64,000 nt of DNA from Candidatus Omnitrophota bacterium (GTDB lineage Bacteria; Omnitrophota; Gorgyraeia; Zapsychrales; Fredricksoniimonadaceae), in contig JADFZK010000011.1 of assembly GCA_015232565.1 (NCBI GenBank), positions 358 to 64,357 on the forward strand, read 5' to 3'. Of this stretch, positions 25,594 through 63,678 are shown piece by piece. Every line of letters begins with the position of its first letter. The first letter of the stretch is position 1. The position numbers and the translations under genes were made by a program. Under the pieces are notes generated by a model, which made no database searches, was not told the origin of the DNA, and saw only the letters and a list, made by a program, of their open reading frames with translations.

Positions 25594-26277
25594 TTAAAAC
25601 CTGTACTTGATAATGGCCCCATACATTCCCAAAGCTTTCGGCCAATTGATCTTTTTACCTTGCACAATTGACCGCGCCTGATATTTAACGGGAACCTCCA
25701 CTATACGCACACCACGGCGCACCAGTTTAGCCGTGACCTCGGTCTCAAAAGAGAAATGATCCGACTCCAGCGCGATCGCTTTGATATCCTGCGCACGAAA
25801 CAACTTGAAACAGGTATTAATATCGGTCAGCCGGGTGCCAAATAACAGATTAAACGTGACGTTGGAAACCACATTCGCGAAACGATTCATCGGCGCCATG
25901 CCCTCGATAACGCCCTTGAAGCGGGAACCATACACCGCATCGGCCTGGCCGCTGAGGATCGGCGCCAGCAACCGGGGGTATTGCGCGGGATCATATTCCA
26001 GGTCGGCATCCTGGATCAGCACCAGCCCGCCGGTGGCTTCCTTGATGCCGCGGCGGATAGCCGCGGTCTTGCCCTGGTTGGTTTGCTGAAAGACCTTCAC
26101 GAAACGGTCGCCATCGAAACGGCCCAGCGCTCCGGCCGTGCCATCGGTAGAGCCGTCGTTGATCACCAGGATCTCGCGCTCCCAACCCAAAGGCAACACC
26201 ACCGCTTTCACCGCGTTAATAACCTCGACGACCGTACGCTCTTCATTGTAAGCCGGAATAATAACCGAAAGTTTCAC
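25594..26277 (-). CDS. GT2 family glycosyltransferase, DPM1/GtrB-like (paralog of 20058..20756, ~50% aa identity, opposite orientation)
   Basis: SVIIPAYNE ... [10 protein letters not shown] ... QDADLEYDP. 4-nt overlap with nadE. Confidence 0.8.
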
Positions 26278-34023: not shown

Positions 34024-34161
34024 TTACGGCAAGCCGACCGGCTGGGCATTGTTGCAATTCAGGGACCACACACTGCCTGTCATCTGCATCATATTGATGA
34101 CCACCGGAGCAAAGCAGTCCACGCCGCGGGTCTTGATGCGCTGGATCTTAAACGTGTTCAT
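34024..34161 (-). CDS. 45-aa ORF that duplicates the C-terminal 40 residues of the giant protein (MNTFKIQRIKTRGVDCFAPVVINMMQMTGSVWSLNCNNAQPVGLP). Its ATG overlaps the yhcG-like stop (ATGA).
   Basis: Derived by reverse-complementing 34024-34161; not in the ORF track (<60 aa). It lies within direct-repeat copy A. Confidence 0.35.
   Translation of the reverse strand: MNTFKIQRIKTRGVDCFAPVVINMMQMTGSVWSLNCNNAQPVGLP
34026..34148. repeat. Direct-repeat copy A (123 bp, ~92% identical to 35335..35457)
   Basis: Direct alignment: acggcaagccgaccggctgggcattg...gcgctggatct. Confidence 0.9.
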
Positions 34162-41125: not shown

Positions 41126-41135
41126 AATTGGAATA

Positions 41136-42482: not shown

Positions 42483-43390
42483 GGGCGGTCGAGGGTAAAA
42501 TAGCTCAGGCGGGCCCAGGTCTTTTGTTTCTTCAGGCGCGACCAGATCAACAGGAAGTCCTGGTAGGCTTCCGCCCGGCGCAGGGTGCATTCTTCATGCA
42601 GGAAATTGACCGCCCGACGAAAATACACGTCACGGCCGGAACTGTCCTTGAATATCTTTATCAAACCCAGCCAGATATCAAAATTATGCATATCGCCCAA
42701 AGCCCGCTGGACTTTCATGGCCGCAAAAATAAAAGGCTTAACCTTGTTCCCGTACAGGCATTCGAAATTCTCCAAAGTGTACCGGAGATTTTTGGCCGCA
42801 ATGCGCATTTCATGCAATTCCTTCACGCAGGCGGCCTGACGCACATACGGCTCCAGGCTGAACATTTTCTCCAAACGCTCCAGGATATTGTTCTTGGCCC
42901 ACTCGTCGAGCGTTACCCCGGTCTCGGCCAGCGTCGGCTTAAGCCGGCGGATAGACTTGAAAACCTGGTGCTGATGCAAACGGGACAAGTCTTTTAGGAT
43001 GCGCGGCTGGATCTCGGCCCGGTCTTCCCGAAGCTCGTCGATGATCTCGAATATACCCTCGCGGTATTTAAGGCCCGGCGCAGTCTTGCCTCCGGCCGGC
43101 TCGGTGACCGGCCCCGCGGCCAGCTGGGTAAGATAAGAGATCTTGGTATCGATATCCCGCGCTTGTCCCAGCGAACGCAAAAGCCGCTTGATATTCAGGA
43201 TCGCCGCCTGATACTCGCGCGAGTTCACCGTTTCCTTAAAATCAGCCAGGGTACTCTTCAGCCGGCGCAGATCCACCCGCATACGATGCAAATGCTCGAT
43301 ATCCTGGCCCAGGCGCACTCCCTTAACCTCGGCCTCTACCGCCGCAATATGCTTTTCCACCAATTTGGTATACAGCGTCCGTTCATCCAT
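42479..43390 (-). CDS. CHAD-domain protein (polyphosphate-granule associated)
   Basis: ~300 aa, helical, with conserved His/Arg (HRMRVDLRRLK, KNLRY). Sits between the MPP-HD gene and ppk1. Confidence 0.65.
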   Translation of the reverse strand: MDERTLYTKLVEKHIAAVEAEVKGVRLGQDIEHLHRMRVDLRRLKSTLADFKETVNSREYQAAILNIKRLLRSLGQARDIDTKISYLTQLAAGPVTEPAGGKTAPGLKYREGIFEIIDELREDRAEIQPRILKDLSRLHQHQVFKSIRRLKPTLAETGVTLDEWAKNNILERLEKMFSLEPYVRQAACVKELHEMRIAAKNLRYTLENFECLYGNKVKPFIFAAMKVQRALGDMHNFDIWLGLIKIFKDSSGRDVYFRRAVNFLHEECTLRRAEAYQDFLLIWSRLKKQKTWARLSYFTLDRP

Positions 43391-45443: not shown

Positions 45444-46972
45444 AAACTTTCGTTGATCACCAGCCGGATCCGGCTGCCGGTTATACGTTCAAAAAGCTCT
45501 TTCTTTTCCAGGAAGTCATTCTTCTCCAGGAGAAAATTATCCCGCGAATCCACCTGCAGGGTAACATCATCACTGGTGCCGTTGAGCACCTTTAATTCCT
45601 GCACTTTCTGCCGATGCGCATGGTCCAGCGCATTGGCAATGCGCAAAAGCGCCGACAGTTTTTGCACCGCGATCTGACGGTCGTCCGACAGGCTGTTATA
45701 CACCAGATGCGACCTCTGCGGATCGCCCCGGCGATGATAACGCGCCACGCAAGCGATAGTCTTGATCTCTTCGTCAGTAAGGCGGAAAAGATTCAGTGAA
45801 CTAATGATATATTCCGAATGTTTGTGGTGCGCGCGATTGGAAATGAACTTGCCGATATCGTGCAGATAAGCCGCCAGGCTCAGGTAAAGCAGGTCGCGTT
45901 CCTCCAGCCCCAGCTGTGCCCCCAAACCCTCAAAAAGCACCTTGGCCAGGTGGGCCACATGCTTGGAATGATCGATATTAACATTGTATTGCTCGCAGAT
46001 CGAGTGCGCCACCGACAAAAGCTGATTGGACTTGTTATACCTTCTCGAAAGCTCCAGCCCCAGCACTTTATTGGCCAGCACCGCCTCGGCCAGCGAAGTC
46101 TCCAGGATATAGACGTGCGGAATGCCCGTTAATTCAAAGAACATCTTAAGGACCACCATGTAAGGCAAAAGCGCCTCGGTGTTCTCTACCGGCAGGTCGT
46201 AATCGTGGGCCACTTCCTCATTGGTCTTTTCGGTCAACTCGGTAATAACTTTGTCCACCTCGTTAACACTGAACTGAAAGAAATTGGTCGAAACCTTCTT
46301 GCTCGGCAGGATGGCTTTTAACAGGTCCTGGTTCTCGTCGATCAGGAAAATATCATCCACATGCAGGCGCGGCAGGCGCGTCTTAAGGTAACGAAACTCG
46401 TTCTCGATATATTCATGCACCGCTTCCGCCAGCTCTTCCTTACTGCCGTCGATCTTGCCCGTCAGCTGTTTAAACCGCAACGCGCCCAGGGCCAGCCCGG
46501 TGTTCATCAGGGTAAACCCTTTTTTCAAGATCGAGATATCCAGGCTGCCCGCCCCCATTTCAGCGATCAGCAGATTCTTGTTATGAACGGGATAAGTACC
46601 TTTCAATTTGTGGGAAATATAAGCGTCAATGTAGTAAACAATGTCGCCGACATTAAGCACATCGATCTCGAGCCCCGTCTTGCGCCGTACCGTATCCACG
46701 AAAATATTCCGGTTATCCGCTTCCCGCACCGCGGTGGTGCCGATCACGAACACCTGGTTTACATTGTATTCCCGCAGGATCTTTTTATATTTCTCGAGGG
46801 TGTTGATGGTGAGATTAATGAGTTCCTGCGAAATGCTCCCTTTGAGGAAAGTGGCCCGCCCGATAGGCACCACGTTCTTCAGGGACTCGATGATCATAAT
46901 ATCGCCGTCGGAAGGCTCACCGATAAGCAGCTTGATGGAATTGGATCCTATATCAATTACACCGCTAGCCAT
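45440..46972 (-). CDS. ppx: Exopolyphosphatase / guanosine pentaphosphate phosphohydrolase (Ppx/GppA) with a C-terminal HD-like domain
   Basis: ASGVIDIGSNSIKLLIGE actin-like ATPase fold N-terminus. 4-nt overlap with ppk. Confidence 0.88.
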   Translation of the reverse strand: MASGVIDIGSNSIKLLIGEPSDGDIMIIESLKNVVPIGRATFLKGSISQELINLTINTLEKYKKILREYNVNQVFVIGTTAVREADNRNIFVDTVRRKTGLEIDVLNVGDIVYYIDAYISHKLKGTYPVHNKNLLIAEMGAGSLDISILKKGFTLMNTGLALGALRFKQLTGKIDGSKEELAEAVHEYIENEFRYLKTRLPRLHVDDIFLIDENQDLLKAILPSKKVSTNFFQFSVNEVDKVITELTEKTNEEVAHDYDLPVENTEALLPYMVVLKMFFELTGIPHVYILETSLAEAVLANKVLGLELSRRYNKSNQLLSVAHSICEQYNVNIDHSKHVAHLAKVLFEGLGAQLGLEERDLLYLSLAAYLHDIGKFISNRAHHKHSEYIISSLNLFRLTDEEIKTIACVARYHRRGDPQRSHLVYNSLSDDRQIAVQKLSALLRIANALDHAHRQKVQELKVLNGTSDDVTLQVDSRDNFLLEKNDFLEKKELFERITGSRIRLVINESF

Positions 46973-46976
46973 ATTC

Positions 46977-49415
46977 TTAACCCGTACGCACCTTGAGCAT
47001 ATCGCCCAACTGCCCAAAACTTTTCAGCCAGTCCACCGCCCCCGCATCCCCGGCGGCCGCCTGGGCGCGTTTTTCCCGTTCTGCAGTCTGGGCTATAGCA
47101 TAATAAATATTCTGCGCTTTCCAGTAATCCTGGTCCAGCCGTAAACTGGCCAGCAAACGCACCAGTTCACTGATATTCTCCAGCAAAGCGCCGTCATTGG
47201 GATTACGTGCAAAACGCGCCATCAATTCATTGACCTTGTGCCCGCCGGTAAATTCCAGCTGTTCCTTGCCGCGGTTAAACGGCCAGCGGCTGATCTCGCT
47301 GACCATCCGCCGCAGTTTGTCCAGCGGCACATCCGGCATGGCCAACAGCCGCAGGATATCGCGGTTCAGCACAAACTCCACTACGCCGGACAAAGTCTTG
47401 GGCAGGGGCATATGATTTTCATTGATCATCCGGATCAGCGAATAATGGTCCTCGTATATCCGGCGGAACGACGCCTCGACCTCACGCATCGTGGATTCAA
47501 AGATACTGTCCAGAATAGACTGCTGTTCCTGCCGGAACAAATGCCAGAGAGAATAATTCTTCGAACCGAAATAACGGTTGATAACATGAATAGCGCGCGG
47601 AATATCGCCCTCGGAAAATATTTGCAAAACCTCCTGGCGCATCTTGTTGAACCAGGCGTCATCGCGATAGTAATCCACTCCGGTAATAAAATTATGATCT
47701 CCCAGGTGCAAAACAATATAATGCACCTCAAACTTGGTCCAGGTGACCTCGGAAATGATCTCGCAATGGCCGGCCACCAGGGCCAGCTTGCCGACGGTCT
47801 GCTTGTCGTGCACCTTACGGATGACCTTAAAACAATACAGGTCGGCTTCCGGCGGATAATCCTGATACAGCGAGCTCATGGCGTAATGCGCGCCGACCCG
47901 CAGGATATCCACGATCGAAGGCTCCACATAGGTCTTGTAGATCCGCGCCCCGTTATTGGCCTCGGGCACATTGCTTTTGGCCTTACCCAGGATCTCGATA
48001 AACCCCAGCTCCAGGTCCTCCTCGGTAACGCGGCGCACCAGCTGGATAACCCGGGCAGCATACTTGATTATCTGTACGGTCTCGATGCCGGATATATCAT
48101 CAAAAAACCAGCCGCAACTGGTATACATCAGCAAGGCATTGCGCTGGGTTTCCAGACAACGCAGGATGCGGTTCTTTTCTTTAAGCTCCAACCCCGGGCG
48201 AATATGCTCGCTGAAGAAAAGCTCCACATTGGCGTGCGTACGGTCCAGAATGACCTCAATATAAGCATCCCGGAGTTTCCAGGGTCCGTTGGGCTCCGGC
48301 ACATAAGCCTTTAATTCCCGCACAAAAACTTCGGCCGTACGGTCGCGCAACCAGTCGAGCGCCTCCCGCAGGGGAGCGCGCCACTCCTGTTGCCACCCTG
48401 GTCGGCCGCCGGAATTGCAGCCGCAATTATCCCGCCAGCGCTCGATCCCGTGCAGACAACTCCAGGAGCTGTTCTCCACGATCTCCACCTCATACTCGGG
48501 CGGATTGCGCTCCAGATACTCGCCGTAAATAGTGATGCCGGCCAGATTGTTCTTTTCCACATAATACAAAGCGTATGCCAGCGCCATATCACCAAACTTG
48601 TGATGATGGCCGTAACTTTCGCCGTCGGTCGCAATATGCACCAATTGCGGTTTGGCCGTACGGCGGTCCAGCGCGCCCAGAATGCGGTTGGCCAGGGCCT
48701 CGCCGCTGTTCAAAAGCCCTTCAAAAGCCACCGCCTGGGAAATATGGCCGTCATAAAAGAATAAGGCTATAGTGCGGCCCGACGGCAGACGACACAAATA
48801 AGGCCTCCGCAGATCGATAGCCTCAGCGTCTTCCTCATTCCAGGTTCGACTGGCAGTGATCTTTTTAGCCCGTTTGGCCTGATGCGGCGCCAGCACCGTG
48901 AACTTAATACCCTGCTCGGCCATCAGGTCCAGGCTCTCAAGGTCCACAGCGGTCTCGGCCAGCCACATGCCTTCCGGCCGGCGCTGAAAGCGCGACTCGA
49001 AATCCTCGATCCCCCAGATTATCTGTGTCCGCTTGTCGGCCGCATTGGCCAGCGGCATGATCATGTGATTATAAACCTGCGCCATGGCCGACCCGTGGCC
49101 GGAAAAACGCGTACGGCTTAACCGGTCAGCCTCCAGCACCGAGCGGTAAGCATCAGGGTCCTTTTTTTCCATCCAGGAAAGCAGGGTGGCCCCCATGTTA
49201 AAACTTATTTTGGAATAGGTGTTCACGATCTCAACTACCCGGCCCTCATTGTCCAGGATCCGGGAAGCCCCGTTACGGGCGTAGCATTCGGTGGAAATGC
49301 GCTCGTTCCAGTCGTGATACGGCTGGGCAGATTCCTGCAATTCCACCTCTTCCAGCCACGGATTCTCGCGCGGCGGCTGATAAAAATGCCCATGGATACA
49401 TATGAATTTATTCAT
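46977..49415 (-). CDS. Glycoside hydrolase family 57 protein (alpha-glucan branching / 4-alpha-glucanotransferase type) with a C-terminal DUF3536-like region
   Basis: HGHFYQPPREN, the GH57 N-terminal signature; 812 aa. Confidence 0.85.
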   Translation of the reverse strand: MNKFICIHGHFYQPPRENPWLEEVELQESAQPYHDWNERISTECYARNGASRILDNEGRVVEIVNTYSKISFNMGATLLSWMEKKDPDAYRSVLEADRLSRTRFSGHGSAMAQVYNHMIMPLANAADKRTQIIWGIEDFESRFQRRPEGMWLAETAVDLESLDLMAEQGIKFTVLAPHQAKRAKKITASRTWNEEDAEAIDLRRPYLCRLPSGRTIALFFYDGHISQAVAFEGLLNSGEALANRILGALDRRTAKPQLVHIATDGESYGHHHKFGDMALAYALYYVEKNNLAGITIYGEYLERNPPEYEVEIVENSSWSCLHGIERWRDNCGCNSGGRPGWQQEWRAPLREALDWLRDRTAEVFVRELKAYVPEPNGPWKLRDAYIEVILDRTHANVELFFSEHIRPGLELKEKNRILRCLETQRNALLMYTSCGWFFDDISGIETVQIIKYAARVIQLVRRVTEEDLELGFIEILGKAKSNVPEANNGARIYKTYVEPSIVDILRVGAHYAMSSLYQDYPPEADLYCFKVIRKVHDKQTVGKLALVAGHCEIISEVTWTKFEVHYIVLHLGDHNFITGVDYYRDDAWFNKMRQEVLQIFSEGDIPRAIHVINRYFGSKNYSLWHLFRQEQQSILDSIFESTMREVEASFRRIYEDHYSLIRMINENHMPLPKTLSGVVEFVLNRDILRLLAMPDVPLDKLRRMVSEISRWPFNRGKEQLEFTGGHKVNELMARFARNPNDGALLENISELVRLLASLRLDQDYWKAQNIYYAIAQTAEREKRAQAAAGDAGAVDWLKSFGQLGDMLKVRTG

Positions 49416-49618
49416 CGGAACCTAAACCTCTCACCTTAATAGAAAACCCGTCCTGGTGTAGCGTGTCTGTCGCTTCTTTACATTTGAAGAGCATCTTGTT
49501 TTCGAACGTATAGGAAAGCATTTTATACTCGCCTGTACCATAAAAACTTTCGTGATAATGCTTAACGGCCGGAAAACTGTGCCGCTAAACATTATCACGA
49601 AAACATTATCCTCGGCAC

Positions 49619-51631
49619 TTAACGCGTAATGCGAAAAAACGTCACGCTTAAAGGCGGCAAGCGCAGGTTAAGCGAATGCTCACGGCCATTCCAGCCGATC
49701 GCCTCGCTCATTACTCCGCCGGCATTACCCTTGTTGCTTCCACCATACAGCGCGGCATCCGAATTCAACAGTTCCCGCCAATATCCCGGCTGAGGCACCC
49801 CCACCCGGTAATTGTCCCGCATGACAGGAGTGAAATTACACACCACCAGAATATCCTCACTACGATTCCCGGTTTTGCGCACCCAGGTCAGCACACAATC
49901 CTCCCAGGCCCCGCACTCGATCCATTCAAAGCCGTGATGGCTGAAATCGTCCGCATAGAGCGCCGGTTCACGGCGATACATCGCATTGAGATCCTGCATC
50001 CACTTCTGCGCGCCCTGATGCGGCTGCCAGTTTAACAAATGCCAGTCGAGGCTGGTCTGATAGTTCCATTCATCCCACTGCCCGAACTCGCCGCCCATAA
50101 AATGCAGTTTCTTGCCCGGCTGACCGAACATATACCCGAACAACAGGCGCAAATTAGCGAACTTCTGCCAATCGTCCCCGGGCATTTTATTGAGCAAAGC
50201 GCCCTTGCCATGTACCACCTCGTCGTGCGACAGGGACATCATGAAATTCTCGGTGAACGCATAAAGCAGGCCGAAAGTAAGCTGACCATGATGATGCTTG
50301 CGGTAGACCGGGTCCTTGGTGAAATACACCAAAGTATCGTGCATCCAGCCCATGTTCCATTTCATGCCAAACCCCAGGCCGCCATCCCAAACCGGCTTGG
50401 ACACTTTGGTCCAGGCCGTGGACTCCTCGGCAGTCATCAAAATATCCGGATGCGCCGCGTACACCGCTTCGTTCAGGCGCTTGATGAAGTCGATCGCTTC
50501 CAGGTTTTCGCGCCCGCCAAAACAATTCGGGATCCACTCGCCTTCCTTGCGGGAATAATCCAGGTACAGCATGGAAGCCACGCCATCCACCCGCAAGCCA
50601 TCAGCATGATATTTGTCGAACCAGAACAAGGCGCTGGAAATAAGGTAATTGCGCACCTCAACCCGGCCGTAATTAAAGATCGAACTTTTCCAGTCCGGAT
50701 GGAACCCCTTACGCTGGTCTTCATGCTCATAAAGCGAAGTGCCGTCAAACTGGTAAAGCCCATGGCCGTCATTAGGAAAATGCGACGGGACCCAGTCAAT
50801 AAAAACCCCGATGTCGTTCTGGTGCATCTTGTCTATCAGGAACATCAGCTCCTGCGGTCCGCCAAAGAACGACGCCGGCGCAAAAAAACCGATCGTCTGA
50901 TAACCCCACGACCCCTGGAACGGATGCGCCAGTACCGGCATGAATTCCACGTGCGTATAACCCATCTTTTTTACATAAGCCACCAGCTTGTCGGCCATTT
51001 CCACATACGTCAGCGAACGATTGCCGTCTTCCGGAACGCGCATCCACGAACCCAAATGAACTTCGTATACCGAGATCGGCGCATTCAGGGCATTGTTGTT
51101 CTTGCGTTTTTCCATCCAGGCCTGATCGCGCCACTGATACTCCAGGTCCCACACGATACTCGCCGACTTGGGCGGAACTTCCGAATGACGCCCCATAGGA
51201 TCGGACTTTTCCAGCTCCCAGCCCTGCCGGGTACGGATATAATATTTATAATGATCCCCATGTCCCAGGCCCGCCACAAAACCTTCCCACACCCCGGATT
51301 GATCGCCGCGGCAGTTCAGCCTGGTCGCCTGGCGGTTCCAGCCATTAAAATCACCAATGACCGTGACCACTTCCGCGTTCGGCGCCCACACCGCAAACCA
51401 CACGCCCTTGACGCCATCGCGCTCAATAATATGCGCGCCCAGCTTGTCGTACAGATTAAAATGATTGCCTTCCCGGATAAGATGTATATCAAAGTCAGAC
51501 AGGTAGCAATTCACAGGTTTGTTCTCCTTTAAATAGCCCTGGGCTTCACAGACAACCTTCTTTGCTTCTTTGCGCGACACGGTGCGCGCCGGTTTTTTTA
51601 CTCGACCAGAAAGAAGTGTAGCTGTTGGCAT
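49619..51631 (-). CDS. glgB: 1,4-alpha-glucan branching enzyme
   Basis: CBM48 (VWFAVWAPNAEVVTVIGDFNGW) plus a GH13 catalytic domain. Confidence 0.93.
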   Translation of the reverse strand: MPTATLLSGRVKKPARTVSRKEAKKVVCEAQGYLKENKPVNCYLSDFDIHLIREGNHFNLYDKLGAHIIERDGVKGVWFAVWAPNAEVVTVIGDFNGWNRQATRLNCRGDQSGVWEGFVAGLGHGDHYKYYIRTRQGWELEKSDPMGRHSEVPPKSASIVWDLEYQWRDQAWMEKRKNNNALNAPISVYEVHLGSWMRVPEDGNRSLTYVEMADKLVAYVKKMGYTHVEFMPVLAHPFQGSWGYQTIGFFAPASFFGGPQELMFLIDKMHQNDIGVFIDWVPSHFPNDGHGLYQFDGTSLYEHEDQRKGFHPDWKSSIFNYGRVEVRNYLISSALFWFDKYHADGLRVDGVASMLYLDYSRKEGEWIPNCFGGRENLEAIDFIKRLNEAVYAAHPDILMTAEESTAWTKVSKPVWDGGLGFGMKWNMGWMHDTLVYFTKDPVYRKHHHGQLTFGLLYAFTENFMMSLSHDEVVHGKGALLNKMPGDDWQKFANLRLLFGYMFGQPGKKLHFMGGEFGQWDEWNYQTSLDWHLLNWQPHQGAQKWMQDLNAMYRREPALYADDFSHHGFEWIECGAWEDCVLTWVRKTGNRSEDILVVCNFTPVMRDNYRVGVPQPGYWRELLNSDAALYGGSNKGNAGGVMSEAIGWNGREHSLNLRLPPLSVTFFRITR

Positions 51632-51711
51632 GATAACTCTCCATTGCAACGTTTGATTTTATATAAAAACCGCGCCGGTCCGGCCAGGCCATACAGCGCG
51701 TGACAAAAAGG

Positions 51712-54150
51712 TTATACTTTCCAGATCTCCCGGGCATATTCCCCAATGGTCCGGTCGCTGGAGAACGGCCCGGCCTTGGCCACATTAACGATCGCACGCC
51801 GGGTCCACTCTTCATGATCCTTGTAAAGCTCCGACACTTCGTCCTGGGCTTTGGAATACGCCTCAAAATCAGCGCACAACATGTAATAATCACCCCGGTA
51901 AATAGTGTCCAGCAAAGGCGCGAACAGGCCCTTTTGGCCGTTGGAGAACATATCACTTTCCAGGGCTCGGAACACTTCGCGTAAAGCCGGCGAGCGTTTG
52001 ATATATTCCCGCGGGTCATAACCGCCCTGGCGCAAGGCCAACACCTCATGCGCTTTCAAACCAAAAATAAATATGTTCTTCCCCTCCAGGCACTGCGCCA
52101 TTTCGATATTGGCCCCGTCGTAAGTACCGATCGTCAGCGCGCCGTTCAACATGAACTTCATGTTCCCGGTACCGGACGCTTCCATACCCGCGGTCGAGAT
52201 CTGTTCCGAAAGGTCGGCCGCCGGAATGATCTTCTCGGCCAGCGAAACCCGATAATTCTCCAGGAAAACCAGCCGGATCTTGTCGCGCACCGACTTGTCC
52301 TGCTCGATCGTGGCCGCCACGCTGTTAACAAAACGGATTATCAATTTAGCCAGAAAATATCCCGGCGCAGCCTTGCCGCCCACAATAAACGTCCGCGGCA
52401 TAATAAACTCGTAAGGCGCCGACTTGGCTTTCAAATATTGCGAAACGATGTACAGCGCAAAAAGAAACTGGCGCTTGTATTCATGTATGCGCTTGACCTG
52501 CACATCAAAAAGTGAATTCGGGTCGACCGGCACTTTCAGCGTGCGGGTAATGATCTCCGCCAAGGCGTTCTTGTTAACCTGCTTTATAGCCCGCCAGCGG
52601 CGACGGAATTCCTTGTTGTCTTTATGCTCTTCCAGCCTTTGCAGCAGATCCAGGTTGGTAACCCACTTGTCGCCGATGGTCTCGGTGATCAGGTCGGCCA
52701 GGCGCGGGTTGGCCTTCAACAGCCAGCGGCGCGGCGTTATGCCATTAGTCTTGTTATTGAACCGGCCCGGGAACATCTCGTTAAAATCCCGAAACAAAAC
52801 ACTCTGCAACAACTGCGAATGCAAGGCCGAAACCCCGTTCACCGAGAAACTGCCCACAATGGCCAGATACGCCATGCGCGCTTTCTTAGGGCTGCCTTCC
52901 TCAATGATCGACATCCGGCGTAACCGGTCCGCGTCGCCCGGGAATTTCCGCGCCACCTCGTCCAGGAACCGCCGGTTCACCTCATAAATTATATCCAAAT
53001 GCCGAGGCAAAACCTTCCCCAACAAATCCACAGTCCAGCACTCCAGGGCCTCGGGCATCAGAGTATGATTGGTATACGCAAAAGTCCGGGTGGTTATCTG
53101 CCAGGCCTCGTCCCAGCCCAGGCCTTCCTGGTCGATCAAAACCCGCATCAGTTCCACCACGGCCAAGGTCGGATGCGTATCGTTAAGCTGAATACAGGCC
53201 TTCTCATGGAACAAGCGGATATCATTATTATCGCCTTTATGCCGGCGGATAATGTCCGCGATCGAGGCGGCAGTGAAAAAATATTCCTGCTTGAGCCGCA
53301 GTTCCTTGCCCTGGCTCACATTGTCGTTAGGATACAAAACCTTGGAAATGCTTTCCGACTGGATCTTCTGATGGACCGCTTTTTCATAATCGCCGTGATT
53401 AAAAGAATCAAATTCGAACTCGTCCGTCGCCCGGGCCGACCACAAACGCAAAGTGTTCACCACGTCATTCTTGTAGCCGGGGATCGGGGTATCATAAGGC
53501 ACGGCCATTACCGCTTCGGCATCCACCCAGGAAGAACCGGTCCGGATGCTTTTATCGCTGCGGCCATAGAACTGCACTTTCACCGCATATTCCGGACGGG
53601 GGATCTCCCAGGGATTGCCATTGCGCATCCACTCGTCGGGGATCTCCAGCTGTTCACCATTCTTGATCTTCTGATTAAAAATACCGTAATCATAACGAAT
53701 CCCGTAACCGTGCCCGGCGATACCCAAAGTAGCCATTGAGTCCAGAAAACAAGCGGCCAGGCGGCCCAGCCCGCCATTACCCAGGCCGGCGTCCATCTCT
53801 TCATTACGAACGGCATCGAGATTAATATCCAGCTCCCGCAAAGCCGCTTCAATATCTTTCTCCTTGCCGAGATTGAACATGTAATTACCCAGCAAACGGC
53901 CGATCAAAAACTCCATGGAGAGATAATAAACCCGGCGGGTATTCTTTTCATGATAACGGCTTTGGGTATTCATCCAGCGCTCTACGATACGATGCCGGAC
54001 GGTTAAAGCCAGGGCATGGAAATTATCCAAAGTCGTTGCGGTCCTTTGGTTTTTGGCCAGATAATGCGCGCGAATATCCTGCAGGGAGAACTTGATGTCT
54101 TCTTTGCTCATGTCCACATTGATATCATACTTATCGGCAGGTAGCGACAT
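51712..54150 (-). CDS. glgP: Glycogen/alpha-glucan phosphorylase
   Basis: 812 aa. GLGNGGLGRLAACFLDS and the pyridoxal-phosphate Lys region. Confidence 0.95.
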   Translation of the reverse strand: MSLPADKYDINVDMSKEDIKFSLQDIRAHYLAKNQRTATTLDNFHALALTVRHRIVERWMNTQSRYHEKNTRRVYYLSMEFLIGRLLGNYMFNLGKEKDIEAALRELDINLDAVRNEEMDAGLGNGGLGRLAACFLDSMATLGIAGHGYGIRYDYGIFNQKIKNGEQLEIPDEWMRNGNPWEIPRPEYAVKVQFYGRSDKSIRTGSSWVDAEAVMAVPYDTPIPGYKNDVVNTLRLWSARATDEFEFDSFNHGDYEKAVHQKIQSESISKVLYPNDNVSQGKELRLKQEYFFTAASIADIIRRHKGDNNDIRLFHEKACIQLNDTHPTLAVVELMRVLIDQEGLGWDEAWQITTRTFAYTNHTLMPEALECWTVDLLGKVLPRHLDIIYEVNRRFLDEVARKFPGDADRLRRMSIIEEGSPKKARMAYLAIVGSFSVNGVSALHSQLLQSVLFRDFNEMFPGRFNNKTNGITPRRWLLKANPRLADLITETIGDKWVTNLDLLQRLEEHKDNKEFRRRWRAIKQVNKNALAEIITRTLKVPVDPNSLFDVQVKRIHEYKRQFLFALYIVSQYLKAKSAPYEFIMPRTFIVGGKAAPGYFLAKLIIRFVNSVAATIEQDKSVRDKIRLVFLENYRVSLAEKIIPAADLSEQISTAGMEASGTGNMKFMLNGALTIGTYDGANIEMAQCLEGKNIFIFGLKAHEVLALRQGGYDPREYIKRSPALREVFRALESDMFSNGQKGLFAPLLDTIYRGDYYMLCADFEAYSKAQDEVSELYKDHEEWTRRAIVNVAKAGPFSSDRTIGEYAREIWKV

Positions 54151-57501: not shown

Positions 57502-57861
57502 TTATTTCCCGCTTTCACTTTGATCCAGGAATAGCGTCTGCCCTACAATTATACCGGTGCTGGCAATAGTGCCCACCGGCAATTCTATGGCTGTTGCCGC
57601 TCGCCAGAATATCGGGCTGAGCTGAAACGGCCGGATCCCGCGAACCAGCCCGACCACACACCAGGACCGGTCCACAAACACCACGTCGAGCGCAAAACGC
57701 ATAAAGAACATGTGAATCGAATTACACCGCGTTATAACCAACGCTTCCCCCGGCTCCAGGCTGGTGCGGCCCAGCAGGCCCTTAAGCCTGGCCAGAAAAG
57801 TATCTGCCAGCCCGGCCTTGACAGCTACCATTCTCTGGGTGGAAATATTCGCGATGGTCAA
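57502..57861 (-). CDS. DUF192 (COG1430) domain protein
   Basis: 119 aa. ...[23 protein letters not shown]... matches the DUF192 core. Confidence 0.7.
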
Positions 57862-57879
57862 AGCTTTCGTCCGGGTTTA

Positions 57880-60054
57880 TTATGACGGGCAGACCTTGCT
57901 GGAATCAAAAATATCCGCGCTAAGGGTGAGCCCCCTCTTGATAAAACCGTCAAAACATACCGGCACATAACCGGTGGGCGCAAATTCGCCAATAATGCGG
58001 CCATTACGATCGGTGCTCTGGTGATTAAAAACAAAGATGTCCTTCAGTTCCGGCAAGCCGTCCACCATCCGGCCGGTCAATTCCGTTATCCCGGTTATTT
58101 TCCGGGTGCCATCCGAAAATCTGGCCACATGCACCACAATATGGATAGCGGAAGCCACCATTTCATAAACCGCGCGCAGGGGGAGTTCAATACCGCTTAA
58201 AAGAAAAAGGGAGTTAAGGCGGATGATCGCGTCCCGGGTAGAATTGGCGTGCACAGTGGTCAACGAACCGTCATGGCCGGTATTCATGGCCTGCAACATG
58301 TCGATAACCTCGGGGCCGCGGCACTCACCGATAATGATCCGGTCCGGGCGCATACGCATGGTGTTCACAAAAAGATCGCGGATGGTTATAGCGCCCTTGC
58401 CTTCCACGTTCGAGGAACGCGACTCCAGGCGGGCCCAGTGGCTTTTATTAAGCTTCAGCTCGGCGGCATCCTCAATGGTAATAATACGTTCGGTATCCGG
58501 AATATATTCGGAAATAATATTAAGCAAGGTGGTCTTGCCCGAACCCGTACCCCCGGAAACCAGAATATTCTTGCGCGCCATGACCGCGGTCTGGATAAAA
58601 TCGGCCATCGGCTGGGAAAGGCTGTGGAAACGATTGATCAGGTCATCCGAAGTATAACGTTCGCGCGAAAATTTACGAATGGTTATCATCGGCCCGCGCA
58701 AGGACAGGGGCGGAATAATAGCGTTGATACGCGAACCGTCGGGCAGGCGCGCGTCAACCATCGGCACCGATTCATCGATACGCCGGCCCAGCGGCGCAAT
58801 AATACGGTCGATTATCAGCCGCACCTGCTGGTCCGACATAAACTTGCGATTAGTGTGTATTATCTTGCCGCTCTTCTCGACATAGATCTCGTCCTTGTTA
58901 TTAACCATGATATCGGTAATATCGGCGTCGGCCAAAAACTCTTCCAGCGGACCCAGGCCCAGGGCTTCATTCAGGATATCCTGCACCAGCCGGGCGCGTT
59001 CTTCATGGGACGAAAGTATCGAGCCGGACTCCTCGGCAATAATATCCGCTATAATACGCTGGGCCTCTTTTTTAATTACCGCCGACTGCTCGGGATCGGC
59101 CAACTGTTCAGGCGTGGCCTTCAAATTCATCCGGTCGATCAGTTTGCCATGCACGCGCCGCTTGAACTGGTCGACCTGGTCATCTTCTTTCTTGGAGACC
59201 ACCTGCAACTGGTTAACATTGCCCGCCCGGGTAATGCCAAACCTTTCCCAAAAATTATCGCCTTTTTTCTCGTCGGTAGTAGCCCGGACGCGGTACACCT
59301 CGGAGGTCAGGACATACAGGCTCTCGTGCTCCAGCTGTTCAGCCATGTCAATAAAAGCCTGGGCCACCTTGGAGCGCGGAGAATCCATCACGCAGGGGAT
59401 CCCGCGATTCAGGGCCACGCCCACCACCTTGCCATCCGAAGGAATACGAGCCAGGATATCCAGGCCGAGCGCGGCTTTCACTTCCTGCCAGGCCACCCCG
59501 CCATGGCTTTCCGAACGATTCAAAACCAACTTTACCATCTTGAGCGGGAAATGCTGGCTTTGCAAAACCTCAATGCCCCACTTGAGCTGGTACACCGCCA
59601 GAATATCCGGCGTGGCTATAAGCAAAATAAGATTGGAAATATCCAGCACCGAAAGCAAGACCTCCGAAAAAGCCTTGCCCACATCCACGATCACATAATC
59701 GTATTGGTTGGAGATCTTCTTAAAGAATATCTTGGTATTATCGGGGGTTATCTGACCGGCCTGGCGGACAGTCGTGACTGCCGGAATAAAATCAATACCG
59801 GAAGAATGCCGGGTGACAAAATTCTTTATAACCGAGGGATCCACTACCCGTTCCAGCTCGGGGAGGGCATCAATTACAGAATGCCGCGGAGCCAGATTCA
59901 GCATCCGGGCCATGTCCTGGCCCGACTGAAAATCATAATCCACCAGCAAAACCTTGTGCCCGGCCATCACCAAAGCGGTGGCAGTATTTACACAGGAAAA
60001 GGTCTTGCCAACGCCGCCTTTATTGCTAAAAACTGTAATTATTCGAGCGATCAT
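57880..60054 (-). CDS. Fused Tad-type pilus assembly proteins: N-terminal CpaE/TadZ-like ParA/MinD ATPase plus C-terminal CpaF/TadA secretion ATPase
   Basis: N-terminal SNKGGVGKTF (deviant Walker A); C-terminal LVSGGTGSGKTT, EDAAEL and IIGECRG (TadA boxes). A single 724-aa ORF. Confidence 0.85.
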   Translation of the reverse strand: MIARIITVFSNKGGVGKTFSCVNTATALVMAGHKVLLVDYDFQSGQDMARMLNLAPRHSVIDALPELERVVDPSVIKNFVTRHSSGIDFIPAVTTVRQAGQITPDNTKIFFKKISNQYDYVIVDVGKAFSEVLLSVLDISNLILLIATPDILAVYQLKWGIEVLQSQHFPLKMVKLVLNRSESHGGVAWQEVKAALGLDILARIPSDGKVVGVALNRGIPCVMDSPRSKVAQAFIDMAEQLEHESLYVLTSEVYRVRATTDEKKGDNFWERFGITRAGNVNQLQVVSKKEDDQVDQFKRRVHGKLIDRMNLKATPEQLADPEQSAVIKKEAQRIIADIIAEESGSILSSHEERARLVQDILNEALGLGPLEEFLADADITDIMVNNKDEIYVEKSGKIIHTNRKFMSDQQVRLIIDRIIAPLGRRIDESVPMVDARLPDGSRINAIIPPLSLRGPMITIRKFSRERYTSDDLINRFHSLSQPMADFIQTAVMARKNILVSGGTGSGKTTLLNIISEYIPDTERIITIEDAAELKLNKSHWARLESRSSNVEGKGAITIRDLFVNTMRMRPDRIIIGECRGPEVIDMLQAMNTGHDGSLTTVHANSTRDAIIRLNSLFLLSGIELPLRAVYEMVASAIHIVVHVARFSDGTRKITGITELTGRMVDGLPELKDIFVFNHQSTDRNGRIIGEFAPTGYVPVCFDGFIKRGLTLSADIFDSSKVCPS

Positions 60055-60073
60055 GCTCTCTTATCTATCATAG

Positions 60074-61747
60074 TTACTTACGTTTGGCAACATTTTTCAA
60101 AAAAGCATCGAGGCTGTAAACGATAGGAAGCGTTACAGTTATCTCATCTTGCGCCAGGCCGGCAGGAAAAGCGCTGTACGGCGCAAGGATCTGGGCTGTA
60201 TTAACGGCGTCCTGGTCAAAAACATCGTAACCGGAACTTTCTTTTACAAAAACATCGCGCAAACTGCCATCCTTGCGGATCACCAAAGCCAGCTTCACGG
60301 TACCCTGCCAGCGATTCTCCTGGGCTTCGTAAGGATAAGCGATCGAAGCCGAAACCTTCTGCTGAACGGCTTCAGCATACGGCTTGAGTTCCGGCGCTAT
60401 AGTGACCGGCACTTCCGCCGCGTTCTTGGCGATCACCGGTAATTTCACATCATTCCGCCCGGCCGCCATAGTGATCTGGTCATCGGGCTTTACTACCGGA
60501 AGATTGTCGTTCTTGACCACCGGCTCAATTTTAATTTCTTCCTCTTTAACCAAGGCTTTAATGATCGTTGGAGTAATAGAAATTACTACTTCCGTTTCGC
60601 TGGTAGGTGTTTTCGTATTACGGAAAAGTGCGCCCACCAACGGAATTTTGCTCATTAAAGGCACTCGGTTAACCGTCTGGCTGTCACGCTTGTCTATTAA
60701 ACCCGCCAGCACTATGGTTTGCTTATCATCCAGAAAAAGCTGGGTTTGCGCAGTCCGCGTGGTAAAAGCAACATCACCATTTGCTCCAGTGCGGCCTTCA
60801 TCAATGCCGCTGATCTCAACATTCAACAAAAGATCAACCTTACCCTTCTTAATAGATGGCGTTGCCCCCATGCTGATACCATAAGACTTGAATGAAACAC
60901 TGGTTTGTGTAGTCTGGGAACTGACGGATGAAGTGGTTGTGGATATCGGTATTTCCCCGCCCACCAAAAAAGTGGCTTCTTTGCCGCTCTTAACAACCAA
61001 CCGCGGCTTTGAAAGAACGTGGCCCTTGCCCTCTGTGATTAAAGCATTGATAGCCGCCAGCAATGCCGTTGTACGATTAAAATCTCCGATCGTAAATAAA
61101 TCTTTAACCTTACCGGTTGCCGTCGGCAAAGTTTCGCTAACACTTAAGGAATCATTCCATTTTACACCCAACAGTTTACTCAACGACGAAGACAACTCGG
61201 TGATCTGCATATCCAGCTGGATCATGTCCTCAATGTCTTCTTTTTTAACCAGGTTCAGCACACTACCCGGAAAAGAATCCGCCACTGAATTAACGTTAGC
61301 CATCTTATCTTCCGGCACAACCCCGGTCAGCATAACCTTGCCTTCCAGGTCGTTTTGTTCGACCTTGACACCAGTAACCAGTGAAGCATCCAACAACGTC
61401 TGAATACGGGCTTTAACCAGGCCCAGATCATCGGTAATAACCCGGATTATAAATGAACGCTTCCCGCTCTCATCCCACAGAAACAACACCGTCTGCCCGG
61501 CCTGCTGGCCCACCACCACCACTTGCCCGGGCTGGGCATCCGTAATATCGGCCACGGCCGGATCGGTCACCGAAACCCGCTGTAAACCTTTTGCGGCGAT
61601 CGTATACACATCACCTTTAAGTATCTGGACCTCTTCGAAAGCCCCGACAGCCGCCAACGCGATGTGGGCCGGCGACATCAGCAAACAAACCGCCAGCAAC
61701 AAACTCAAGCTTTTCTTCATAGTCCCCACCATTAGGTTAATGTTCAT
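60074..61747 (-). CDS. cpaC: Secretin (CpaC/RcpA-like) with a C-terminal TonB_C-like domain
   Basis: Secretin core ...VNRVPLMSKIPLVGALFRN.... The C-terminal ~90 aa read AYPYEAQENRWQGTVKLALVIRKDGSLRDVFVKESSGYDVFDQDAVNTA..., matching the TonB C-terminal domain pattern. Confidence 0.8.
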   Translation of the reverse strand: MNINLMVGTMKKSLSLLLAVCLLMSPAHIALAAVGAFEEVQILKGDVYTIAAKGLQRVSVTDPAVADITDAQPGQVVVVGQQAGQTVLFLWDESGKRSFIIRVITDDLGLVKARIQTLLDASLVTGVKVEQNDLEGKVMLTGVVPEDKMANVNSVADSFPGSVLNLVKKEDIEDMIQLDMQITELSSSLSKLLGVKWNDSLSVSETLPTATGKVKDLFTIGDFNRTTALLAAINALITEGKGHVLSKPRLVVKSGKEATFLVGGEIPISTTTSSVSSQTTQTSVSFKSYGISMGATPSIKKGKVDLLLNVEISGIDEGRTGANGDVAFTTRTAQTQLFLDDKQTIVLAGLIDKRDSQTVNRVPLMSKIPLVGALFRNTKTPTSETEVVISITPTIIKALVKEEEIKIEPVVKNDNLPVVKPDDQITMAAGRNDVKLPVIAKNAAEVPVTIAPELKPYAEAVQQKVSASIAYPYEAQENRWQGTVKLALVIRKDGSLRDVFVKESSGYDVFDQDAVNTAQILAPYSAFPAGLAQDEITVTLPIVYSLDAFLKNVAKRK

Positions 61748-61750
61748 CGA

Positions 61751-62614
61751 TCAAAGCTCCCTTCCACCGCGGTATATCTGAATATACGGCTTGGCATCCA
61801 CGGCGCTCTCGGTCTCCACGCTCAGCTCGGCTTTTCTGGCTACCGGCTCTTCAGTCTGCAACTTGATATCCGCGCCGCTGTTCTCCAGCACATACTCACC
61901 CAGCGTAGACCAGTTGGCGGTGGGTATCATCGGCCGGCCTTTTTCGGTCGGCGTACGCAAAGCCAGTTCCAGCTTTCCGTTCAGGTCGGCAAAAGCCAGC
62001 AAGCCGGCTTCCTGCGGATCGACCGCAAAGGTAACTTTTAAGGCTTTTTCTTTTTGCTGGAATTCATAAGCACCGGGCTCGTCAATATTCGTATTGATGG
62101 CCAGCACCTGCAGGCCCTGAAAGATCATGGCCGTAACTTTTTCCTTTGGATCGAGCTTTTTTCCCGTGGGCATATCCAAATGGGCAATAACGTCCACGAA
62201 ATCGCCAGGGTTAAGCAGTCCGCCTACCGCGCCCAAAGATTGCAGTTCCACCGTAAGAGCGCGCTTGCCCGCCGGAGTACGTAAGGCGAGCGAAGGCTTC
62301 TTTTTGGGGGCTTCCGCGGCCGCTGTTGTAACGGCGGCTTTTTGTGAGGCCGCCATTTTTACCGCTTCCTGCGCGGCTTTATTGGCACTGGCCTGCACTT
62401 CCACTATCTTCTGGTTAAGGCTCGCGATGTCCTGCTGATACTGTGCCTTGTTCTCTTCCTGCGCTTTCTGGTACTGATTGGCCAGCTTGGTAGTCCCCTC
62501 ATTCACCATCGAGGTTACCACATTGCCAACCAGGACCGAGGCCACTACCCCGGCCGCTATCGCTACCGCGATAAAAGTGAACTGCACTTTGTTCCCTGCG
62601 TTAAATAAGGCCAT
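61751..62614 (-). CDS. cpaB: Flp pilus assembly protein CpaB/RcpC (SAF domain)
   Basis: N-terminal TM, ...RTPAGKRALTVELQSLGAVGGLLNPGDFVDVIAH... Confidence 0.8.
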   Translation of the reverse strand: MALFNAGNKVQFTFIAVAIAAGVVASVLVGNVVTSMVNEGTTKLANQYQKAQEENKAQYQQDIASLNQKIVEVQASANKAAQEAVKMAASQKAAVTTAAAEAPKKKPSLALRTPAGKRALTVELQSLGAVGGLLNPGDFVDVIAHLDMPTGKKLDPKEKVTAMIFQGLQVLAINTNIDEPGAYEFQQKEKALKVTFAVDPQEAGLLAFADLNGKLELALRTPTEKGRPMIPTANWSTLGEYVLENSGADIKLQTEEPVARKAELSVETESAVDAKPYIQIYRGGREL

Positions 62615-62616
62615 AA

Positions 62617-63591
62617 TTATTCTCCGGTTTTTTCGTTCAGCAGTTCGGTGTTCACGCTGATCTTGACCTTTTTGGTCACTTCAGCCATTTTATCCAACAC
62701 CGCTTTCTGCTGTTTCTGGGCTGTCAGCCCCTTGATCAACTCCGCCTTGACGGTCTCAAAAGACGCTTTATCACCGCCGCGCACATCATCTACCTTTACA
62801 ATGTAATAACCTTCCGGGCCCTGGAACACTGCCGACACATTGCCTTTGTTAAGCGCATCCACCGCCCGGCCCTGCTGTTCAAAAGCATATTTAACCAAAA
62901 AACCGAGGTCACCGCCCGCCGCCGCTGTTTTACCCTTGGAGCGGTCTTTGGCGATCTGCGCAAAATCCCCGCCCTGTAAAACCTGGACCAGGATATCTTT
63001 GGCTTCCGCTTCGGTCAACACCACGATCTCGCTGACCTTCTTCTCCACCGGATTCAAAAAAGTATCCGGATTCTTTTCGTAATACTCTTTGGCCTCTGCT
63101 TCGGATGATGCCAGATCCTTGGTTAACCCGGCTACCAACTCCTGAACCAGAATGTTATTCTCAAAATCTTGCATGGCCGCGCGCACCACTTTGGATTCAT
63201 TCAGTTTTTGCTCACGCGCTTCATAAACCATCAACTGTTGCCGAATAAGCTCATCCAGTAACATATTGCGGGATTCGGTTTTCTTTTCATCAAAATCAGT
63301 CACCACCTGCTTGATGTTTTTAACTCTTTCCGCAAACTCCGCAGTGGTCAAGGTCCAATCCCCAACCTTGGCCAATACGTCTTTAGGTAATTTTTCATCT
63401 GCGGCTACTACGGTAGTGGCCGAAGTCGCAGGAGTTGCTACGGCAACCGGTGCCACATTGGCAACAGGAGCGCTAACGGTTTTGGTAGCTGGTACTTTAC
63501 CGGATTTTGGAAAAAGATTATCACAGCCGCTCAAGCACAGAACGGCAAGGAATGTAAACAAAACAAACTCTCTCTTTGTGGCAACAACCAT
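62617..63591 (-). CDS. SurA/PrsA-like parvulin peptidyl-prolyl isomerase lipoprotein
   Basis: CLSGC lipobox, SurA-like N-domain, PpiC-type PPIase region (PEGYYIVKVDD). Confidence 0.75.
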   Translation of the reverse strand: MVVATKREFVLFTFLAVLCLSGCDNLFPKSGKVPATKTVSAPVANVAPVAVATPATSATTVVAADEKLPKDVLAKVGDWTLTTAEFAERVKNIKQVVTDFDEKKTESRNMLLDELIRQQLMVYEAREQKLNESKVVRAAMQDFENNILVQELVAGLTKDLASSEAEAKEYYEKNPDTFLNPVEKKVSEIVVLTEAEAKDILVQVLQGGDFAQIAKDRSKGKTAAAGGDLGFLVKYAFEQQGRAVDALNKGNVSAVFQGPEGYYIVKVDDVRGGDKASFETVKAELIKGLTAQKQQKAVLDKMAEVTKKVKISVNTELLNEKTGE

Positions 63592-63599
63592 GGTCTTAT

Positions 63600-63645
63600 C
63601 CTCCTGATTAGTAGTTCCGCTTTAATTATACACGACATTTGTCAA
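63600..63645 (-). promoter_or_regulatory. Promoter-like -35 TTGACA (63645..63640) and -10 TATAAT (63630..63625), with a strong SD AGGAGG (63605..63600), for the PPIase-cpaB-cpaC-cpaEF operon. The -35/-10 spacer is only 9 bp, so the TTGACA may be incidental.
   Basis: Minus strand reads tttttttgacaaatgtcgtgTATAATtaaagcggaactactaatcAGGAGGataagaccATG. Confidence 0.4.
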
Positions 63646-63678
63646 AAAAACAAGTTTAGCACAAAAATTAATGAATTC

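Follow-up and report, generated by a model that had tools for sequence, protein, structure and literature searches.

Omnitrophota are abundant, uncultured and ultra-small bacteria that are thought to be predators or parasites. Seymour et al. (2023) described a 'Tad complex' in the phylum, which was expressed in V. archaeovorus with its prey, and West-Roberts et al. (2023) described a conserved 'T2SS-like locus' (T2SS, type II secretion system) across Omnitrophota, generally upstream of giant genes and consisting of rcpC, a gspD-like secretin, a gspE-like ATPase, gspF-like platforms, a Rotamase_2 peptidyl-prolyl isomerase (PPIase) and small genes with class-III signals. A 2026 survey of Omnitrophota reported 'TonB-domain' genes that flank giant genes, without recognising a secretin in them, and found canonical TonB-dependent receptor systems to be absent from its genome collection. 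Outside the phylum, an 'atypical TadZA fusion ATPase' was described in Bdellovibrio bacteriovorus, which is without the atypical receiver domain (ARD), interacts with the polarity hub RomR and was proposed to couple spatial regulation to motor activity (bioRxiv 10.64898/2026.07.08.737194, July 2026). Here we analysed a 64,000-nt stretch of DNA from an Omnitrophota bacterium (contig JADFZK010000011.1, hereafter the window), in which five tightly packed minus-strand open reading frames (ORFs) fill positions 57502-63591 and encode, among others, a secretin with a TonB-like tail and an ATPase with the architecture of Bdellovibrio TadZA.

We read this block as the first five genes of a Tad-like (Flp/type IVc pilus) cluster that is conserved across Omnitrophota, and give this reading, with the workings proposed for it below, a probability of about 0.72. 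By its listed components the cluster is the locus of West-Roberts et al. (2023), and it is presumably also the Tad locus of V. archaeovorus; compared with the published locus, that of the clade to which the window belongs is split after the DUF192 gene. Term searches of the texts of Seymour et al. (2023) and West-Roberts et al. (2023) found no mention of the TonB_C tail, the ATPase fusion or DUF192. The features of the block are as follows.

62617..63591, minus strand: parvulin-type PPIase lipoprotein, 324 aa, first gene of the module (Rotamase_2, 68.7 bits, 1e-18)
61751..62614, minus strand: RcpC/CpaB periplasmic Tad component, 287 aa (RcpC, 82 bits, 3.9e-23; TIGR03177 pilus_cpaB, 91.6 bits, cutoff 71)
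60074..61747, minus strand: RcpA/CpaC-type secretin with TonB_C tail, 557 aa (T2SS-T3SS_pil_N 45.6, Secretin 143.2, TonB_C 62.0 bits)
60437..61747, minus strand: secretin body, residues 1-437 (signal peptide, pil_N, barrel core 235-397, most of the disordered linker)
60074..60436, minus strand: TonB_C module of the secretin, residues ~438-557 (TonB_C fold and a short extra C-terminal helix)
57880..60054, minus strand: ParA/MinD::TadA(CpaF) fusion ATPase, 724 aa (AAA_31/ParA/CbiA 2-245; T2SSE 201 bits, 365-642)
59305..60054, minus strand: ParA/MinD-like domain, residues 1-250 of the fusion ATPase (AAA_31/ParA/CbiA)
57880..59304, minus strand: junction (residues ~251-330) and TadA/CpaF ATPase (T2SSE 2.9e-59)
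57502..57861, minus strand: DUF192 protein, 119 aa (DUF192, 60.6 bits, 1.6e-16)
63592..63678, minus strand: intergenic region between mdh and the PPIase gene, 87 nt (AGGAGG and promoter-like hexamers)

Profile scans were performed with Pfam at its curated thresholds and with NCBIfam cutoffs, and the domain calls listed for the five genes (Secretin, TonB_C, T2SSE, CbiA/ParA and DUF192 among them) all exceeded the Pfam thresholds. A first-pass annotation, made from the sequence by a model, had placed the five ORFs at these coordinates in the order PPIase, CpaB, secretin, fused ATPase and DUF192, which the ORFs and domains match exactly, and its description of the block as Tad-like agreed with the component types present: RcpC/CpaB, a CpaF-type ATPase and a secretin of the RcpA/CpaC type that includes pil_N. 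A dedicated TadV/CpaA prepilin peptidase, a further component of Tad systems, was not found. The module comprises periplasmic and outer-membrane parts (PPIase, RcpC, secretin) and a cytoplasmic motor (TadZA-type ATPase, DUF192).

The secretin carries a Secretin core (7.4e-42) behind a T2SS-T3SS_pil_N domain (5.8e-12), and the best PDB matches of its AlphaFold2 (AF2) model were the GspD, BfpB and RcpA-TadD (8ODN) secretins. Its tail was assigned to TonB_C at residues 469-546 (Pfam 7.6e-17, 62.0 bits, cutoff 24.6) and to TIGR01352 tonB_Cterm (55.7 bits, cutoff 27.1), includes the YP motif of the TonB_C family, and matched only TonB C-terminal domains (CTDs) when searched against PDB sequences. 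In the full-length AF2 model the tail had a pLDDT of 76-89 and the preceding linker one below 50, and a model of the tail domain by itself reached pLDDT 85 and pTM 0.76. All of the top 24 Foldseek PDB matches of the tail model were TonB, FusB, HasB or TolA CTDs, the best being the TonB proteins of N. meningitidis (TM 0.78, rmsd 1.4 A) and H. pylori (TM 0.76). A TonB_C domain at the secretin C-terminus had been proposed beforehand as a claim open to refutation by domain scans and structure prediction; it is borne out by the Pfam and NCBIfam profiles, by sequence matches in the PDB and by a confident match of the fold, and the tail is predicted to be a genuine TonB C-terminal fold.

The tail is also held across the phylum. 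We compared 80 secretins, consisting of the window's own and 79 from loci of the Genome Taxonomy Database (GTDB), and TonB_C was present in 79 of them and duplicated in three. Mean identity to the window secretin across the phylum was 0.50 for TonB_C compared to 0.53 for the barrel core, and 21 positions of TonB_C were invariant among 17 diverse sequences. The linker, in contrast, showed only ~10% identity across the phylum and varied in length from 25 to 228 aa. A constrained globular domain on an unconstrained leash is the pattern of a tethered binding module. Secretins with tandem TonB_C domains were 764-783 aa long (P0042, P0063; L023, L033, L059); copy number and leash length evolve, and the domain itself is held constant. 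A linker motif, 'PVIxKN', was considered as an in-cis TonB-box and rejected, being confined to a subclade near the window and not universal. The secretin::TonB_C fusion had no relevant description in the literature searched and was absent from all four TadZA loci examined outside the Omnitrophota-type cluster; it appears to be an undescribed, phylum-wide variant and a new element of the locus.

The second fusion joins a ParA/MinD-type domain to a CpaF ATPase. Over residues ~330-700 the protein matches the PDB structures of Caulobacter CpaF at 3e-110, and none of its ATPase motifs (Walker A, GGTGSGKTT; Asp box; Walker B; His box) is disrupted; by sequence this half is an unambiguous CpaF ortholog. 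The N-terminal half lies in the tadZ position, between rcpA and tadA, and is fused to tadA. It keeps a deviant Walker A (KGGVGKT) that is found in at least 90% of the Omnitrophota sequences but has degenerated in several fusions of other phyla, its top NCBIfam and PDB matches were MinD and ParA-family proteins, and the CpaE_hom_Actino model scored only 35 bits (cutoff 154). The ParA/MinD domain begins as early as residue 2, which leaves no space for an ARD, and the window protein does not have this defining domain of TadZ/CpaE. The CpaE(TadZ)-CpaF(TadA) polypeptide proposed in the first-pass annotation is therefore real as a fusion, and the 'TadZ/CpaE' label for its N-terminal domain is positional only, the domain being MinD-like by sequence.

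Both fusions had been called unusual, which fits the secretin better than the ATPase. When 1.84 billion cluster representatives (50%-identity clusters) were searched, many representatives of ~700-760 aa matched the fusion ATPase end to end at 37-46% identity, including Bacteriovoracia- and Elusimicrobiota-labelled and unclassified metagenome-assembled genomes (MAGs); one Bacteriovoracia-labelled MAG encodes a 722-aa protein that is 40% identical over its whole length. The four comparator loci outside the Omnitrophota-type cluster were ordinary Tad loci: alongside the fusion ATPase they had Flp, TadE, RcpC and T2SSF, in some cases Peptidase_A24, and a secretin in those where it was called. With a published counterpart in Bdellovibrio and an occurrence in several phyla, the ATPase fusion is already a known kind. 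In the most distant subgroup of Omnitrophota-type loci (L076, L077, L078, L080, L084; secretin 32-34% identical), a second T2SSE-type ATPase of 353-354 aa follows the fused one and occupies the usual place of DUF192 (e.g., L084 13785-14849); one of these looks PilT-like at its N-terminus.

Comparison with relatives shows that neither fusion is spurious or recent and that purifying selection acts on both. The best 120 secretin homologs (43-73% identity) all had pil_N, Secretin and TonB_C, and the best ATPase homologs (63-89% identity) were ~715-731 aa long with both ATPase domains, fused orthologs being the rule and not a frameshift artefact. A scan of GTDB with one genome per species returned 558 stretches with relatives, of which the best 80 were used for locus counts; these were Omnitrophota-type MAGs, some with placeholder names, and all 80 matched through the TonB_C region. 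The expected fusion architectures were found in related MAGs and in the same gene order, recurring in hundreds of Omnitrophota proteins. A fused ATPase of at least 690 aa directly followed the secretin in 57 of the 64 loci with enough downstream sequence, and DUF192 was the next gene in 52/59 GTDB loci and 34/36 JGI loci, exceptions being mostly fragmented ORFs in poor assemblies. Orthologs of both fusions with the same length and architecture came from independent assemblies and sources, and the ParA-TadA junction was kept at 74-82 aa. Within the window's clade the ratio of nonsynonymous to synonymous substitution rates (dN/dS) was 0.06-0.12 for the four genes from PPIase to ATPase, much like that of the neighbouring ilvD, and 0.10-0.26 for DUF192, values which are approximate because dS is close to saturation.

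Public annotation of the window's contig appears to be wrong for both fusion genes. NCBI lists a secretin identical to the window's as a 'TonB family protein' (P0001), and the ATPase as a 502-aa 'CpaF family protein' (P0162) from which the ParA/MinD domain is dropped. As the junction is conserved in length and the orthologs are fused, the 502-aa call is a start-site mis-call and does not reflect two genes.

The five genes are half of a larger unit. In most Omnitrophota the cluster is ~22 kb long and continues past DUF192 as one operon, with an HTH protein, Flp, ~7 TadE-like pseudopilins, a ~500-aa pilin-like protein, a TadE-like protein and a TadG-like protein of more than 1000 aa. The Flp-like pilin is 51-52 aa long (Flp_Fap 1.5e-4, below the Pfam cutoff) and the pseudopilins are ~100-120 aa with G/xxxxEY-type leaders and visible GQS.LEY-type motifs. 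Among the pilin-like genes scanned there was one Class_IIIsignal match above cutoff (25.4 vs 23.7 bits), a weak TadE match (0.037) and no N_methyl match. The cluster ends with a ~105-aa gene and an adjacent pair of single-domain T2SSF proteins of 285-307 aa, which are TadB and TadC; these lay beyond the 10-kb flank of the loci and were reached by walking downstream, and past them stand unrelated genes or a giant ORF. In L093 the full ~22-kb series, from mdh to TadB/TadC, is found on one stretch. Two other candidates for the platform were rejected: the ~611-aa protein after DUF192 shows no more than a single hydrophobic segment and, at its N-terminus, a weak HTH match, and the multi-transmembrane ORFs in the 80 loci are CNNM/CorC transporters, acyltransferases and PMT_2 proteins. 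The HTH protein that opens the second half is ~350-980 aa long and cytoplasmic, with no Pfam family (L002 12742-14601; L003 12591-14426). Its near-invariant N-terminus (MGV.YKL...SCR...SKSS...) gives weak HTH_32/Tc3-type matches, the remainder diverges fast, and a role in regulation or assembly is conceivable.

None of this second half is in the window. Scans of the 64 kb found no T2SSF, Peptidase_A24, ExbB/D or Flp-like gene, as the first-pass annotation had noted for Flp, prepilin peptidase and TadB/TadC, and a tblastn search with the relatives' downstream proteins together with a Flp-motif scan matched only DUF192 and the hydrophobic N-terminal membrane anchor of RcpC, so that no pilin genes are hidden there. 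The same break is found throughout the window's clade (the window, L007, L009, L089, L090 and the P0122 contig; ATPase identity at least 78%), in which the five module genes are intact and ilvD and glycogen genes follow DUF192, showing that a rearrangement after DUF192 parted the two halves of the cluster. A free-standing second half with an HTH protein and a Flp-like pilin occurs in metagenomes (L130/L129; L130 2282-6509). There, an apparent GH1-like glycosidase and a membrane protein (by reading of the sequence) stand where the secretin/ATPase module would be, apparently the split seen from the other side. No tie between L130 and the window's clade is claimed, its HTH-611 protein being closest to that of L010 and its GC 0.43 vs 0.46-0.55. 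Of the two alternatives raised beforehand, a set split across loci is favoured over a reduced apparatus, because in relatives Flp, pseudopilins, TadB and TadC are encoded directly downstream, and because the second half is also known standing alone.

Several other explanations were weighed against this reading. An origin of one or both fusions in faulty assembly or in frameshifts within a metagenome bin, for which only the 502-aa call of NCBI speaks, is effectively refuted by the uninterrupted 724-aa ORF in the window, the shared length and architecture in independent assemblies and the kept junction. It is also very improbable that the tail works as a TonB, as the NCBI name implies, that is as an ExbB/ExbD-coupled transducer opening the pore or TonB-dependent transporters. 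Its membership in the TonB_C family is clear in sequence and fold, down to the YP motif, but only this CTD is TonB-like: the domain is covalently joined to an outer-membrane beta-barrel protein that begins with a cleavable-type signal region, followed by pil_N and Secretin, in place of the anchor and proline-rich spacer of an energy transducer. The protein has no TonB-type N-terminal membrane anchor and no ExbD-interacting segment, no ExbB/ExbD was present in the window or any inspected locus, and the absence of canonical TonB-dependent receptor systems from the 2026 survey's Omnitrophota genomes points the same way. Tied to an outer-membrane protein and without an inner-membrane anchor, the tail cannot be an energy-transducing TonB. 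A reduced or repurposed apparatus in the window's clade, in which the Flp pilins and TadB/C were lost and not relocated, would explain why the 64 kb hold no pilin or platform gene and why the whole clade shares the break after DUF192; we consider it improbable. Five intact genes with dN/dS of ~0.06-0.26 are hard to explain for a motor and pore without platform or filament, and the second half does exist by itself in metagenomes. To our knowledge, no secretion ATPase of the CpaF family functions without a platform protein.

The strongest competitor, which we consider unlikely but well worth keeping in view, is that the machine serves mainly for T2SS-like protein secretion, with a pseudopilus piston exporting the neighbouring giant surface proteins and TonB_C tails that could recruit or guide substrates. 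West-Roberts et al. (2023) call the locus T2SS-like and place it generally before giant genes. The unusually many pilin-like genes (~8-10, including members of ~500 aa and more than 1000 aa) would suit such a piston. Giant ORFs with products of ~4500-5200 aa flank the cluster in L001/L002 (1-2317) and L088 (17923-23780), in keeping with the published link between locus and giant genes; one also flanks the TadZA locus of an unclassified bacterium (L173 1-4686). No giant gene, however, stands next to the module in the window or adjoins the cluster in L087, and the components do not have the marks of a type II system. The ATPase is a CpaF ortholog (3e-110) that scored 45 bits against the GspE model (cutoff 630), the secretin scored 134.9 against the NCBIfam GspD model (cutoff 351) and has pil_N with no Secretin_N (N0-N3) match at E<=0.1, the platform consists of two separate ~290-aa single-T2SSF proteins like TadB/TadC and not of one two-domain GspF, and the pilins have Flp/class-III-type leaders with no N_methyl match. 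We therefore retain the Tad-like pilus cluster as the preferred reading. Some observations weigh against it. Sequence does not decide between an adhesive pilus and a secretion pseudopilus, and the window itself is without pilin, platform or prepilin peptidase over its 64 kb, so that the case for function in its lineage rests on selection and on relatives, with dN/dS only approximate at near-saturated dS. No prepilin peptidase (TadV/CpaA) was found in any Omnitrophota-type cluster where the Pfam matches of called genes were listed, although Peptidase_A24 is present in the Bacteriovoracia comparator locus; by analogy with what is discussed for Bdellovibrio, the gene for the Omnitrophota enzyme may lie at another locus. 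For the TonB_C tail, no partner motif turned up. Peptidoglycan binding by TonB-type domains is itself debated.

In the proposed working of the Tad-like machine, the CpaF half would power assembly (or retraction) of a pilus on a TadB/C platform whose genes lie outside this locus, and the fused ParA/MinD domain would position or regulate the motor, in line with the proposal made for TadZA of Bdellovibrio. The filament would pass through the secretin, each subunit of which would dangle its TonB CTD into the periplasm on a flexible leash; a ring built like that of C13 RcpA (8ODN) would carry many copies per pore. The tail itself would most probably serve as a tether in the periplasm, with a partner strand or peptidoglycan as its ligand. 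All characterised TonB/TolA-type CTDs capture a short partner strand by beta-augmentation (TonB-BtuB, TonB-FhuA, TonB-FoxA and TolA-TolB complexes were among the fold matches), and the tail would dock the pore in this way to a periplasmic or inner-membrane Tad partner, or else to peptidoglycan, supplying the anchoring given elsewhere by AMIN domains, GspAB or pilotins. A more specific version, which we put forward tentatively and hold to be unlikely, is a crown of about a dozen 'inverted', outer-membrane-tethered TonB CTDs on leashes of 25-228 residues that captures a strand resembling a TonB box, offered by a Tad component of the inner membrane or periplasm, by the filament or by a giant secreted protein. 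If true, this would be an unrecognised way to couple, gate or load a secretin pore, specific to the attachment or predation machine of Omnitrophota nanobacteria.

The remaining proteins of the module are less distinctive. The PPIase has a lipobox (LSGC) at residues 19-22 and a weak SurA_N-like match in its N-terminal region (SurA_N_3 1e-4, below the Pfam cutoff), its gene lies upstream of RcpC throughout related loci, and it may be a dedicated periplasmic chaperone or a pilotin-like factor. The RcpC gene begins 2 nt past the PPIase stop, and the gaps within the module are 2, 3, 19 and 18 nt from PPIase to DUF192. A SAF domain, which had also been expected in RcpC, was not detected there by the Pfam scan, and a PDB sequence search with RcpC returned no matches. 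On reading the sequence, an A/Q/K-rich segment of ~70 residues (~35-105) lies between the membrane anchor and the RcpC domain. The DUF192 protein is apparently cytoplasmic, with no signal peptide visible in its sequence; its PDB sequence search found no solved relative, and a literature search on DUF192 and pili found nothing relevant.

The gene on the other side of the PPIase gene, 87 nt upstream, is a malate/lactate-dehydrogenase gene (mdh), and the gap is likely to be the transcription start region of the module. The AGGAGG proposed earlier was found 8 nt ahead of the PPIase ATG. The TATAAT hexamer named with it as a promoter is present too, but no -35 stands at the proper distance from it and it failed the promoter scan, which instead picked TTGAGA-18-TAAACT (9/12, with TG before the second hexamer), itself a weak site, so that the promoter claim is weak.

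The rest of the window is housekeeping (pyrG, purF, carAB, gltBD, lnt, GSIII, nadE, ppk/ppx and glycogen genes). Directly downstream of the module, positions 39803-54150 hold polyphosphate genes (ppk1, two Ppx/GppA-HD proteins, CHAD) clustered with glycogen genes (GH57, branching enzyme, phosphorylase); relatives of the split clade have the same glycogen genes after ilvD. An ORF of 1316 aa that belongs to no Pfam family (35333-39283, minus strand) lies in the lowest-GC stretch (0.435-0.48) and is adjoined by a YhcG/DUF1016 PDDEXK nuclease (34158-35258, minus strand); acquisition as an island, or a link to defence, is possible for this region. At ~20000-26300 lies a glycosylation island of low GC (0.44-0.52) that holds two glycosyltransferases of the GT2 family, a radical SAM/SPASM protein and a pair of paralogous PMT_2-like membrane glycosyltransferases of ~625-630 aa. 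Between carA and lnt, a GC dip (0.478) coincides with a DUF4062 + HATPase_c_4 + HTH_24 protein (8224-9597, minus strand), an architecture known from defence or regulatory ATPases.

The cluster, often found beside giant genes, is the best candidate for the attachment or secretion machine of Omnitrophota. The 'TonB family protein' of these genomes is its secretin, which corrects a widespread misannotation, and a TonB-tailed secretin accounts for the TonB-domain matches flanking giant genes in a survey without canonical TonB-dependent receptor systems. A tethered TonB-type docking domain that is conserved like the pore may reveal what anchors or couples a Tad secretin where pilotins and peptidoglycan-binding modules are absent, and a TadZA architecture common to Bdellovibrio-type predators and Omnitrophota widens the phylogenetic context of the Bdellovibrio findings.

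Compared to canonical Tad systems (Aggregatibacter tad, Caulobacter cpa, Pseudomonas rcp-tad), the window has the same RcpC/CpaB, pil_N secretin and CpaF, and its relatives add Flp, TadE/TadG-like proteins, separate TadB and TadC and the order rcpC-rcpA-tadZ-tadA. Canonical TadZ is a separate protein with an ARD, whereas Omnitrophota TadZ is fused to TadA and has none. The RcpC of the Bacteriovoracia comparator combines SAF and RcpC, unlike that of the window, which has no detectable SAF. A TadD/RcpB-type pilotin and TadV were not seen in the Omnitrophota cluster, which goes beyond canonical Tad in the linker and TonB_C tail, the PPIase lipoprotein, DUF192, the HTH-611 genes and a very large pilin battery. 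By its published description, Bdellovibrio TadZA shares with the window ATPase an ARD-less ParA/MinD-like region, a linker and TadA. Bdellovibrio TadZA has RomR as a partner, whereas no RomR-type partner is known for the Omnitrophota fusion, which keeps the canonical deviant Walker A that is degenerate in several other-phylum fusions. The tail has the fold and sequence family of the TonB, TolA, FusB and HasB CTDs, which likewise sit at the end of a long flexible linker, and Myxococcus GltG/GltJ are further periplasmic connectors that bear TonB_C. Known TonB and TolA proteins, however, are anchored in the inner membrane and coupled to ExbBD or TolQR, whereas the secretin tail is tethered to an outer-membrane pore, with its polarity inverted. 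The AMIN domains of PilQ and the GspA-GspB pair are the peptidoglycan-anchoring modules of other secretin systems, accessory periplasmic modules that fix or position the secretin, which is one role proposed for the tail. The tail differs from them in having another fold and in being C-terminal rather than N-terminal.

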